From Bacteroidaceae bacterium (GTDB lineage: Bacteria; Bacteroidota; Bacteroidia; Bacteroidales; Bacteroidaceae), in contig JAFNXL010000034.1 in NCBI GenBank assembly GCA_017379075.1, forward strand, positions 1,591-65,590: a stretch of 64,000 bases of DNA. The letters are read 5' to 3'. Shown here in pieces: positions 32,006-33,887 of this stretch (position 1 is the first letter of the stretch; each line of letters starts with the position of its first letter). The position numbers and the translations under genes were made by a program. The notes under the pieces were generated by a model. That model searched no databases. It was not told where the DNA came from and worked only from the letters and a program-made list of their open reading frames with translations.

Positions 32006-33295
32006 ATGTGTAAACTGACGATAAAGGATATTGGTCCAATTAAGAAAATAATGATGGATATCAACAAGATTACGTTCTTGTTGGGTCCCCAAAGCAGTGG
32101 TAAAAGTACTATTGCTAAGGTTTTATGCCATTGTCAGTGGATAGAGAAACGGTGCTATACGAACTTTGAAGAAGAAAGTGCAAAGTTTGTTGTCGGTACG
32201 TCGTTTGTTGACGGCTTCAATGAATACTATCGTTTCAATGGCTATTTCCGTAATAATAGCTATATATTATATGAAGGTAATTATATAACCTTGGAGTATA
32301 AGGACAAGAAATTGGCAATCTCCAAAAATCAGGATAAGGATTACGAATATCCCAAGTTATGCTATGTACCTGCTGAAAGAAACTTAGTGGCAGCAATTCC
32401 TAATCTTCGCAAATATAATGATACGAATGATTTGATATTGTATTTCATGTATGACTGGTTTGAGGCTCGAGAATATCTGAAGGAGATGAATCTGGATGAT
32501 ATTATCGAGAGACACGTGAAGTATGTGTTTGAAAAATCCAACAATAATGATATCATTTACGATGGTGATGATGCAAAATTGGATTTGAAGAATGCTTCAA
32601 GCGGTCTCCAATCGGTTGTTCCTTTGATGACAGTTTCAACCTACATTTTGGAAGGCGTATTCAAACGATATAAACCGCTCTCGTCAGAGCAGAAAATGCA
32701 ATTAGAGAAAGCGAACGTTGTACTACGGAAATTGACCAAGCAGTTGAACTCTATAGTTGAAGAGAGGAAAAAAACAGGCGAGTCTGGTGCAATCTCTATC
32801 AAAGTAGAAGGTGCTGCGGAAAACCCTCTTTTAACGGCAATATTAAACCGTGATCCAATTATTCAGGACATCGTAGATTCTTCTGAACGTGAGTTTTTTT
32901 ACAAACGTTCTGATATATATATAGAGGAGCCAGAGCAAAACCTATTCCCTGATGCACAGCAGAAGTTCGTCTATTGGTTAATGCAAGAGATGAGGGAGTC
33001 GCATCGACATCATAGTGCGTTGATTACAACACATAGTCCATTTGTACTATTCTCATTGAATAACTGTCTTATTGGCGGATTAGCAGGAGAGAATCTTCCT
33101 GAACAGGTAAAAAATGAAACGCCATCAAGAAAATCATGGATAGATCCCAAGATGGTGACTGTCTATGAAATTCATGATGGAAAGTTAAAGACCATTCAAG
33201 AGGAGTCAGGTTTGTTAATGCATAATTATCTAAATCAGGCCTATCGGAAGATTAACGCAGAATACCTTGCAATGTTAGACTACTATGAGGATTAA
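32006..33295 (+). CDS. ABC/OLD-type (AAA_15/AAA_21-like) ATPase
   Basis: 429 aa. Walker A GPQSSGKST, YVPAERN, signature-like ASSGLQS, Walker B IYIEEPEQNLFP, and H-loop ITTHSP. Confidence 0.8.
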   Translation: MCKLTIKDIGPIKKIMMDINKITFLLGPQSSGKSTIAKVLCHCQWIEKRCYTNFEEESAKFVVGTSFVDGFNEYYRFNGYFRNNSYILYEGNYITLEYKDKKLAISKNQDKDYEYPKLCYVPAERNLVAAIPNLRKYNDTNDLILYFMYDWFEAREYLKEMNLDDIIERHVKYVFEKSNNNDIIYDGDDAKLDLKNASSGLQSVVPLMTVSTYILEGVFKRYKPLSSEQKMQLEKANVVLRKLTKQLNSIVEERKKTGESGAISIKVEGAAENPLLTAILNRDPIIQDIVDSSEREFFYKRSDIYIEEPEQNLFPDAQQKFVYWLMQEMRESHRHHSALITTHSPFVLFSLNNCLIGGLAGENLPEQVKNETPSRKSWIDPKMVTVYEIHDGKLKTIQEESGLLMHNYLNQAYRKINAEYLAMLDYYED

Positions 33296-33887
33296 GAATC
33301 TAATTCGCAGGTGGTTTGGTAGGTCTGTTATAGTTATTGAGTCGAGTCCGGAGATATATGTGGCCGACATGACAAATCGCAGCAAAAATGTTAGAGGAAT
33401 TGAAATAACAGACCATCAACAACCTTCGCCAGATGGAAAAGGAATGATGGATTGTTTGGTGTTTCATAATCCCAATATCCTCTCTGTGGATTGTTGTATC
33501 TTTAATGATCATGATTTTAAAAATCCACGTACAGGAAAGGATGATAAGCATTGTGAAGGTTGTATGTATCCTACACTGCACGATCCTGCCAGTTGGATGG
33601 TCTTTGTTGAAATTAAGGATTGTAAGGTAGGAAACATGACTGAGTATAAACGAGAATCGAAAAGGCAGATATTTAATGCTGTAAGAACGTTTCGTCGCAG
33701 AGGAATTATCCTCAATGAACGTATATATGGTATCATCTCTTTTCCAAGGCGACACGTAAGCTTTAATGATACAATCTTTACTGATGTATATGAGACAACA
33801 CGACTGAAGCGCTTTACGGGAATTAGATACTATGCAACGAACGAGGCTATTGTAATTGGCGATCTTCGTGTAAGACCTATAATATGA
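33285..33887 (+). CDS. Uncharacterised 200-aa partner protein, putative nuclease (PD-(D/E)xK-like or Toprim-like)
   Basis: Its ATG overlaps the ATPase 3' end by 11 nt. GMMDCLVF followed by WMVFVEIKDCK resembles D...ExK. Alternatively, VIVIESSPEIY with IFNDHDF resembles Toprim E...DxD. It also has a CEGC pair. Confidence 0.6.
   Translation: MRIKNLIRRWFGRSVIVIESSPEIYVADMTNRSKNVRGIEITDHQQPSPDGKGMMDCLVFHNPNILSVDCCIFNDHDFKNPRTGKDDKHCEGCMYPTLHDPASWMVFVEIKDCKVGNMTEYKRESKRQIFNAVRTFRRRGIILNERIYGIISFPRRHVSFNDTIFTDVYETTRLKRFTGIRYYATNEAIVIGDLRVRPII

Follow-up and report, generated by a model that had tools for sequence, protein, structure and literature searches.

A coupled gene pair for an ABC ATPase and a predicted PD-(D/E)xK nuclease in a Bacteroidaceae defense island: a divergent branch of the candidate PDC-M29 systems

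Organization of the locus and its two products

A compact two-gene locus occupies positions 32006–33887 of a 64,000-nucleotide (nt) stretch of DNA from a Bacteroidaceae bacterium (NCBI GenBank assembly GCA_017379075.1, contig JAFNXL010000034.1, positions 1,591 to 65,590 of the forward strand), which is referred to in full as the window. Its first gene, gene A, codes for an ABC ATPase, and its second, gene B, for a small partner protein that we predict to be a nuclease of the PD-(D/E)xK fold; on sequence comparison we place the pair in a divergent branch of PDC-M29, a candidate two-gene defense system. The first-pass annotation, made from the letters of this DNA alone, had described two open reading frames (ORFs) here with an 11-nt overlap, and had read the motifs GPQSSGKST (K33), YVPAERN, ASSGLQS, IYIEEPEQNLFP, and TTHSP in the ATPase and GMMDCLVF, HCEGC, FVEIKDCK, IFNDHDF, and VIVIESSPEIY in the partner. 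Both ORFs were found in the window at those coordinates, and all of these motifs are present in their translations. The principal features of the locus, numbered by the first letter of the window, are as follows.

32006–33295, + strand: gene A, ABC ATPase, 429 amino acids (aa), ATG start; proposed sensor/regulator
33285–33887, + strand: gene B, partner, 200 aa, ATG start; proposed nuclease effector
33285–33295, + strand: overlap of genes A and B, with the partner start codon region in the 3' end of the ATPase gene; 11 nt, predicted translational coupling
32084–32110, + strand: Walker A/P-loop of the ATPase, G27-P-Q-S-S-G-K33-S-T35; at least 95% conserved
32597–32605, + strand: ABC signature, S198-S199-G200; 97–100% conserved
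32924–32935, + strand: Walker B/D-loop, E307-E308-P309-E310; 100% conserved
33026–33040, + strand: H-loop, T341-T342-H343-S344-P345; 97–100% conserved
33549–33557, + strand: H89-C90-E91 of the partner, predicted first catalytic acid (the 'PD' position), from conservation and its place at the start of strand 92–96
33609–33617, + strand: E109-I110-K111 of the partner, predicted (D/E)xK catalytic motif, with invariant E109 and K111 at the end of strand 104–110

Homologs of both proteins are numerous, the ATPase having at least 5,689 homolog clusters at E≤1e-10 in a database of 5.8 billion proteins and the partner family numbering 241 representatives (50% identity level) in a set of 1.84 billion proteins, almost all of them stand-alone and 170–210 aa in length; both ORFs are therefore real genes. 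A 203-aa ORF on the minus strand (33300–33911), which covers the whole of the partner gene, was considered as a gene and rejected: among the homologous loci its frame stays intact only in L001–L003, the closest three relatives, and is broken in all others, and it is hence best regarded as a shadow ORF.

The gene A product is recognized by the Pfam AAA_21 and AAA_15 models. Conservation of its motifs was computed over 39 ATPases from independent loci, in which a Y120-x-P-x-E124-R125 motif and a C-terminal extension running from N352 to L424 are likewise at least 95% conserved; E308 of the Walker B motif is the presumed catalytic glutamate. Variable inserts occur at residues 59–65 and 248–287, the latter positions being the most gap-rich region family-wide, and one Prevotella lineage (L003, L046–L048) possesses a 375-aa ATPase without residues ~237–296 (window 32716–32893). 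This helical insert sits between the ABC signature and Walker B, and is a candidate specificity or sensor region. The AlphaFold2 (AF2) model of the ATPase (pLDDT 85.6) retrieves in Foldseek searches PtuA (from Septu and from a retron), retron-Eco8, GajA, OLD, and Rad50, with probability 1.0 and template-modeling (TM) scores of ~0.3–0.45, and the sequence itself finds only a marginal OLD match in the PDB. Given these structural neighbors and the marginal nature of that sequence match, the protein is an ABC ATPase of the OLD/PtuA/GajA defense clade without a close solved relative. The first-pass call of an ABC/OLD-type defense ATPase is upheld by the same neighbors and by PADLOC matches to PDC-M29A, AriA, PtuA, and GajA.

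The partner, by comparison with sequence libraries, is far more elusive. Searches against Pfam, NCBIfam, PADLOC, and PHROGs yielded no match beyond one to PHROGs at E 0.04, which was treated as noise, and the partner-family profile run against PDB chains returned only Exportin-1/ClpB noise (E ~0.24 or worse). Neither the partner nor its relatives match HNH or PtuB models in Pfam and PADLOC, or NERD in Pfam. The family nevertheless shows a distinctive pattern of conservation when judged on 21 diverse members: D28, N62, E109, and K111 are invariant, E109 and K111 being so in both partner alignments, and E91, F107, I110, D112, C113, K114, and P154 are nearly invariant, the position of E91 carrying E or D. 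In the AF2 model of the partner (pLDDT 85.4, pTM 0.87), E91 starts strand 92–96 and E109-x-K111 ends strand 104–110, after which come helix 115–138 and strand 146–152, the classical strand-strand-helix-strand core of the PD-(D/E)xK fold. In the PDB, Foldseek matches this model best to Nt.BspD6I (the nickase's catalytic domain; probability 0.99, E 0.01), XPF, and Mus81; against viral structures (BFVD) none falls below E 0.01, with scattered ERCC4/endonuclease I-like matches. Conservation and the modeled fold together identify the partner as a predicted PD-(D/E)xK restriction-endonuclease-fold protein. This was one of two readings offered by the first-pass annotation, which had D56 as the first acid, followed by an insert of ~40 aa before E109xK111. 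The fold stands, with E91, E109, and K111 conserved; D56 gives way to E91, the family-wide conserved acid, and because E91 rather than D56 is the first acid, the spacing is an ordinary 17 residues and there is no 40-aa insert.

Co-inheritance, genomic context, and placement among known systems

Starting from the partner family, we fetched 45 genomic loci that span Prevotella, Bacteroides, Phocaeicola, Parabacteroides, Tannerella, Paludibacter, Flavobacterium, two Campylobacterota, and one metagenome-assembled genome (MAG) labeled Thermoplasmatota. An ATPase gene lies immediately upstream of the partner on the same strand in 44 of these 45 loci, down to 23% partner identity, and the contig of the 45th stops 18 nt before the partner. 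The two genes overlap by 4–44 nt (mostly 11, 14, or 17) in all 44 testable loci, and the earlier proposal of translational coupling to a small nuclease is borne out to this extent; no orphan partner occurs among the 44. In the reverse search from the ATPase, two of three independently chosen homologs have a partner with an 11-nt overlap. DNA homology between the window and its close relatives is confined to 31953–33900, from which it follows that the inherited unit consists of the two genes and ~50 nt upstream. The pair is missing from or differently placed in close relatives, and its distribution is patchy. The MAG labeled as a Thermoplasmatota archaeon (L033; JAFGPP010000037.1, a 3.3-kb contig) carries a Bacteroidota-type pair, with an ATPase 33% and a partner 38% identical to those of the window, which points either to contamination of the bin or to transfer between domains.

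A scan of the 68 nearest ORFs of the relatives showed that the commonest nearest neighbors in 39 loci are ResIII (8), N6_N4_Mtase (5), SWI2/SNF2 (4), and further AAA_15/21 ATPases (4), so that the first-pass expectation of co-conserved neighbors in defense contexts holds; further neighbors include SocA/Panacea, PIN, Fic, BrnT, a SLFN-like helicase, and transposase remnants. In three loci (L005, 732–10519; L017, 1488–11287; L037, 174–11206) the genes for a DrmD-like SNF2 helicase, a small unassigned ORF (210–292 aa), a Type III Mod, the pair, and a Type III Res follow one another on the same strand, with E-values of ~1e-200 for the DrmD-like helicase, 1e-164 to 1e-187 for Mod, and 1e-146 to 1e-159 for Res. 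The independently retrieved locus L055/L056 (L055:1–8551) repeats this whole arrangement, which brings the number of independent loci to at least four, and L021 and L022 resemble them by ORF sizes. This embedding suggests that the pair is functionally coupled to restriction of the Type III/DISARM-like sort. As the contexts elsewhere vary, including restriction-modification (R-M) genes, toxin–antitoxin (TA)-type genes, Fic, transposase remnants, and a cobalamin operon, the pair behaves as a mobile defense cassette. In the last of these contexts (L054:2678–7293), a cobalamin biosynthesis cluster (cbiG/J/D ... cbiA) is interrupted in its middle by the pair together with an HU-HIG gene, and the cassette can thus land in housekeeping operons. 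On a Prevotella metagenome contig (L047:10206–12064), a second ABC-ATPase gene (SMC_N/AAA_21, 366 aa) and a 253-aa unassigned gene lie ~600 nt downstream of the pair, making two ATPase–effector cassettes in tandem.

When run on the locus, PADLOC matches gene A to PDC-M29A (E 1.1e-67, 227 bits, residues 1–426 against profile positions 1–406 of 410), with the two genes adjacent and on the same strand. Its other matches to the ATPase are far lower, namely PDC-M56A (4e-15), AriA (3e-11), PD-T4-4_A (4.8e-9), PtuA (~1e-8), HEC-02A (3.5e-6), and also GajA. On the side of the partner the connection is made through its relatives, of which 11 of 21 match the PDC-M29B model PDLC04563 and 3 of 21 match PDLC04564, at E-values from 3e-20 (L044, Campylobacterota) to 0.0081 (L004, 65% identical to the window partner); two of the 21 match HEC-02B (best E 5e-5) and one matches PD-T4-4_B. 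The PDC systems are 145 candidates found by 'guilt-by-embedding' in BREX, DISARM, and R-M loci (bioRxiv 10.1101/2024.01.29.577857, Payne et al.); the name PDC-M29 was not found in the literature searched. PDC-M29 displays the same two-gene layout on one strand, A then B, and the same kind of embedding in R-M-type systems, and differs in that its B model best fits Campylobacterota-type proteins of 175 aa and fades across Bacteroidota, whose proteins are ~25 aa longer. PADLOC as distributed would probably miss this locus.

A second line of comparison comes from Adams et al. (Nat Microbiol 2025; PMC12137116), who treat WonAB together with a broader family of 'OLD-ABC ATPase + novel REase' operons and give sequences in Supplementary Table 5; the 'novel REase' operon derives, as cited and tabulated by those authors (PMC12137116), from the survey of Krishnan et al. 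2020. In BLASTP comparisons with ATPases listed in that table, the window ATPase matches those of P. scopos (31%, E 3e-61), P. dorei (33%, E 6e-56), and P. koreensis (27%, E 5e-38), and the hidden Markov model (HMM) of the partner family scores 82, 55, and 32 bits on the listed Novel REase proteins of P. dorei, P. scopos, and B. fragilis, respectively. Profile–profile comparison by hhalign aligns the partner family with the Novel REase set, as listed, at 98.9% probability (E 2.6e-17, 144 columns), and with the WonB set at 92.7% probability (E 4.4e-7, 80 columns). In the latter alignment E91 falls with the CD aspartate, K111 with the ELK lysine (WonB K71, the numbering having been confirmed with the supplementary sequence of E. 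coli WonB; PMC12137116), and Q128 with Q. The architecture is also shared, insofar as the listed 'OLD-ABC ATPase + novel REase' operons couple an ATPase with Walker A, signature, Walker B, H-loop, and C-terminal extension to a 145–225-aa variant restriction-fold protein bearing a C-(D/E)...(D/E)-hydrophobic-K...Q pattern, both as seen here. WonAB has the same architecture and predicted chemistry, with K33, E308, and H343 of the window ATPase corresponding to K34, E300, and H333 of WonA. Nevertheless, we would place the two in the same superfamily and not in the same family: a Geobacillus WonA-type protein shares ~23% identity with the window ATPase (E 1e-14), WonB is ~55 aa shorter than the window partner, the extra length of the latter being mostly N-terminal, and the invariant D28 and N62 of the window partner family are absent from WonB. 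Moreover, WonAB resides in the Vibrio cholerae WASA-1 prophage, whereas the window pair resides in a chromosomal island. The window sub-clade has the signature F-V/I-E-I-K-D-C-K, and no EIKDCK-type sequence occurs in the part of Table 5 that was compared (PMC12137116); the published wonAB quantitative PCR primer has no match in the viral contig collection. A cysteine directly precedes the first catalytic acid across the superfamily (H-C-E, Q-C-E, K-C-D, or R-C-D in PDC-M29B, Novel REase, and WonB; window C90, 33552–33554), and a second one (E-I-K-D-C-K; window C113, 33621–33623) is nearly invariant in the PDC-M29B branch only, where it may belong to a metal site, act as a redox switch, or be structural.

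Other systems are related at a greater distance. HEC-02 (ABC ATPase + NERD nuclease) and PD-T4-4 (E. coli) are experimentally tested two-gene combinations of an ABC ATPase with a PD-(D/E)xK nuclease, but the HEC-02A and PD-T4-4_A matches to the window ATPase span only Walker B to the H-loop, and the window partner matches neither B model. PtuAB, AriAB, GajAB, and OLD share the ATPase clade by structure and weak sequence matches, and have in common with the window pair the logic of a sensor ATPase with a nuclease. Their effectors are of other kinds (HNH in PtuB, Toprim/DUF4435 in AriB, and fused Toprim in GajA and OLD), whereas in the window it is a separate small PD-(D/E)xK protein.

Because the matches of the ATPase, of the partner relatives, and of the partner profile agree, we assign the pair, on the strength of sequence comparison, to PDC-M29, of which it forms a divergent Bacteroidota (Prevotella) branch, within the WonAB superfamily. 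The first-pass annotation had presented the pair as unassigned and probably new; with PDC-M29 and the 'OLD-ABC ATPase + Novel REase' operons it proves to be largely classified already. It is a known kind of system and not a new kind, and no new category of system is opened by it; the window partner itself escapes current HMM libraries. The locus instead exposes an annotation blind spot, in that the effector side of a whole Bacteroidota branch is invisible to Pfam, NCBIfam, and PADLOC, and the partner alignment from this work could be used for a better effector model. This concerns Prevotella and Bacteroides, dominant genera of the gut and rumen whose phage defenses are poorly charted.

Proposed mechanism and competing explanations

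We propose that the two genes form one anti-phage operon, in which an ABC-ATPase sensor controls a PD-(D/E)xK nuclease effector and which belongs to a divergent branch of PDC-M29, and give this a probability of about 0.7. Gene structure, homology, conserved catalytic residues, fold, strict co-inheritance, and defense context support it. For the steps beyond these (assembly of a complex, its triggering, the need for ATP in activating the nuclease, the choice of substrate, and abortive infection as the result), we infer the following course of events. Both proteins would be made in a fixed ratio from one transcript via translational coupling; the ATPase would dimerize through composite ATP sites and hold the nuclease on its conserved C-terminal extension. 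A phage-derived cue would then alter the ATP-dependent state of the complex and license the nuclease to cut with E91, E109, K111, and a metal ion, and this cutting would halt the phage while sacrificing the infected cell (abortive infection). If WonAB is a guide, the target may be an RNA of the translational machinery and not DNA in bulk.

The nearest characterized precedent, WonAB, needs both genes, K34, E300, and H333 of the ATPase, and K71 of the nuclease; K71A in WonB abolishes both defense and toxicity, the toxicity of WonB requires an active ATPase, and WonB is Lon-labile (PMC12137116). The system causes a lysis-independent abortive infection with translation shut-off, in which genomic DNA is not degraded and phage DNA replication starts (PMC12137116). 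Similarly, HEC-02 needs both genes (bioRxiv 10.1101/2024.01.29.577857), and PD-T4-4 forms higher-order nuclease–NTPase complexes (bioRxiv 10.1101/2025.07.10.664194). Linking the candidate PDC-M29 to the characterized WonAB leads to a concrete mechanistic hypothesis. The catalytic residues predicted here make up a map for mutagenesis, comprising K33, E308, and H343 in the ATPase and E91, E109, and K111 in the nuclease.

Several observations weigh against this proposal. PDC-M29 is itself only a predicted system, one of the 145 candidates (bioRxiv 10.1101/2024.01.29.577857), and the window partner reaches no PDC-M29B model in PADLOC at E≤1. The Foldseek E-values of the partner are weak (0.01 or worse, TM ~0.33). 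The link to WonB is remote, consisting of a profile–profile alignment over 80 columns only, with HMM-to-sequence scores of at most 15 bits, and any transfer of the WonAB substrate or phenotype to the window pair is consequently an extrapolation. The third ATPase homolog of the reverse search (L057, L058: 4001–5700; 46% identical) is without a partner, no remnant of which is detectable in the 445-nt gap before a SocA/Panacea gene; this is an orphan or decayed locus and the sole exception to the pairing found. Finally, some loci lie among housekeeping genes, such as those of the cobalamin operon.

The nature of the substrate separates our proposal from the explanation that competes with it best, namely that the partner is a direct DNA-targeting nuclease and that ATPase-guided cleavage of invading DNA, comparable to that by restriction enzymes or Gabija, rids the cell of the phage and leaves it alive. 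DNase activity is the commonest among PD-(D/E)xK enzymes, the best structural matches of the partner (Nt.BspD6I, XPF/Mus81) are DNA enzymes, the structural relatives Rad50 and GajA of the ATPase act on DNA, and the repeated embedding between Type III mod and res is a DNA-restriction context. With the tested relative WonAB, however, genomic DNA stays whole, replication of phage DNA can begin, and translation is shut down (PMC12137116); tRNase activity is reported for several ABC-ATPase + nuclease systems (PARIS, retron-Eco7 PtuAB, and P2 OLD), and no DNA-recognition domain is evident in the 200-aa partner. An RNA substrate would thus be favored by the WonAB precedent and by the tRNases of PARIS, retron-PtuAB, and OLD, and a DNA substrate by the usual chemistry of the fold and the R-M embedding. 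On balance we hold DNA targeting to be unlikely, if still a serious minority possibility.

The recurrent mod-[pair]-res embedding, which hints at a functional coupling with restriction, also admits a more speculative idea. Since the pair sits precisely between mod and res of a Type III operon with a DrmD-like helicase in at least four loci, its family could be a built-in guard of restriction systems, with the ATPase monitoring the integrity or inhibition of the R-M complex (e.g., by phage anti-restriction proteins) and then freeing the nuclease as a second, suicidal line of defense. The free-standing Prevotella copy of the window would in that case be a derived form with its own trigger, and the N-terminal extension of ~55 residues in the partner, with the invariant D28 and N62, could provide a new substrate or partner specificity. 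PARIS, which senses Ocr, offers a role comparable to that of the proposed guard. We put this idea forward as a long shot.

With respect to the proposed anti-phage operon itself, an overlapping two-gene operon with a small toxic-type nuclease that moves as a compact unit could also be read as a TA-like addiction module, in which the nuclease would be the toxin and the ATPase an antitoxin or chaperone, and the main role would be to stabilize the mobile island. The Pfam label of AAA_21 ('putative AbiEii toxin, Type IV TA system') and the TA-type neighbors SocA/Panacea, PIN, and BrnT in relatives agree with this. Yet the WonAB ATPase is required for toxicity rather than neutralizing it, and simple sequestration is ruled out in that system (PMC12137116); in the family studied here the catalytic motifs of the ATPase are strictly conserved, when a passive antitoxin would need none. 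It is the ATPase that persists as an orphan, with no orphan partner in 44 loci, a pattern that discriminates poorly. Altogether, an addiction module is improbable. Still less credible is a housekeeping pair for DNA repair or chromosome maintenance, formed by an SbcCD/RecN-like ABC ATPase and a nuclease and present in the island by chance: Rad50-Mre11 is indeed among the Foldseek neighbors of the ATPase, and housekeeping genes flank some loci, but the patchy distribution, the variable genomic position, the low GC content relative to the host, the absence or different placement in close relatives, and the embedding in R-M operons all speak against it, as do the best model matches, which are all to defense systems, and an ATPase without coiled-coil arms of SMC/Rad50 length. 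The other first-pass reading of gene B, as a minimal Toprim protein (E19 + D75-x-D77) that would make the pair a PARIS-/OLD-like ATPase–Toprim system, drew on the resemblance of VIVIESSPEIY...IFNDHDF to Toprim motifs, and the weak match of the ATPase to AriA (E 3e-11) agrees with it, but it fails, with practically no probability left to it, because these residues vary across the family (E19 is not conserved; P, K, D, or N occurs at position 75, and Q, C, or N at position 77), while no Toprim, DUF4435, or AriB model matches the partner or its relatives in Pfam or PADLOC, and the AF2 model shows a PD-(D/E)xK core with restriction-fold nucleases as structural neighbors.

Upstream signals and the surrounding defense island

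The region immediately upstream of gene A contains a candidate transcription signal.

31955–31962, + strand: putative operon promoter, TAATTTTG, fitting the Bacteroidetes -7 consensus TAnnTTTG; 44 nt before the start codon (ATG) of gene A

The TAnnTTTG pattern has 56 matches in the window against 38.9 expected, and the TAATTTTG match is weak when taken alone; DNA homology to the close loci L003 and L046–L048 starts at 31953, just upstream of it. We infer from the sequence that this box is a putative promoter of the two-gene operon. Scans for sigma-70 promoters and intrinsic terminators gave no more sites than in shuffled sequence, and an Rfam scan found no RNA near the locus. Bacteroidetes promoters differ in type from those of sigma-70. 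Further upstream, in the divergent intergenic region between a helix-turn-helix (HTH) gene and the ATPase gene, lies a perfect 22-nt inverted repeat (31724–31776; ACGTTTTAAGTGCGATTTTTGC, 9 nt, GCAAAAATCGCACTTAAAACGT). It falls outside the DNA common to L003 and L046–L048 (from 31953), an exact copy of one of its arms was seen only in the near-identical locus L001, and no T-run follows it; it could serve the HTH protein as an operator, act as a terminator, or be the scar of an insertion.

The description of the pair as lying inside a defense island and being transcribed divergently from it proved accurate, the island genes noted on either side being on the minus strand. Upstream these comprise Fic/PDC-S72, a four-gene Mks/Wadjet-like operon, GmrSD, Abi_alpha/PDC-S47, and the HTH gene, which is of the XRE type, and downstream a vsr gene. 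The island (~20.0–34.8 kb) has a GC content of 33–46%, that of the pair being 37–39%, against ~51–54% in the flanks. The Mks/Wadjet-like operon (21913–28154, minus strand) codes for a 396-aa protein with no match, MksE (Pfam E 6e-40), a DUF3584 protein (1,218 aa, E 1e-63), and a DUF7281/JetD-like protein; the sole match among the PADLOC Jet models is JetD (E 1e-6), and the operon is possibly a divergent condensin-type anti-plasmid system. The vsr gene (very-short-patch-repair endonuclease; 34298–34780, minus strand) follows a sulfatase gene at a distance of 7 nt; the adjacent ORFs examined include no cytosine methyltransferase, and the vsr gene appears to be an orphan at the edge of the island. 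In another Prevotella (L002, 4661–5193), the pair lies directly beside dnaK, without ~12 kb of defense genes; in the window, the Fic, Mks/Wadjet-like, GmrSD, Abi_alpha, and HTH genes (19900–31800) intervene between dnaK and the pair, and this downstream flank of dnaK looks like a hotspot for defense genes.

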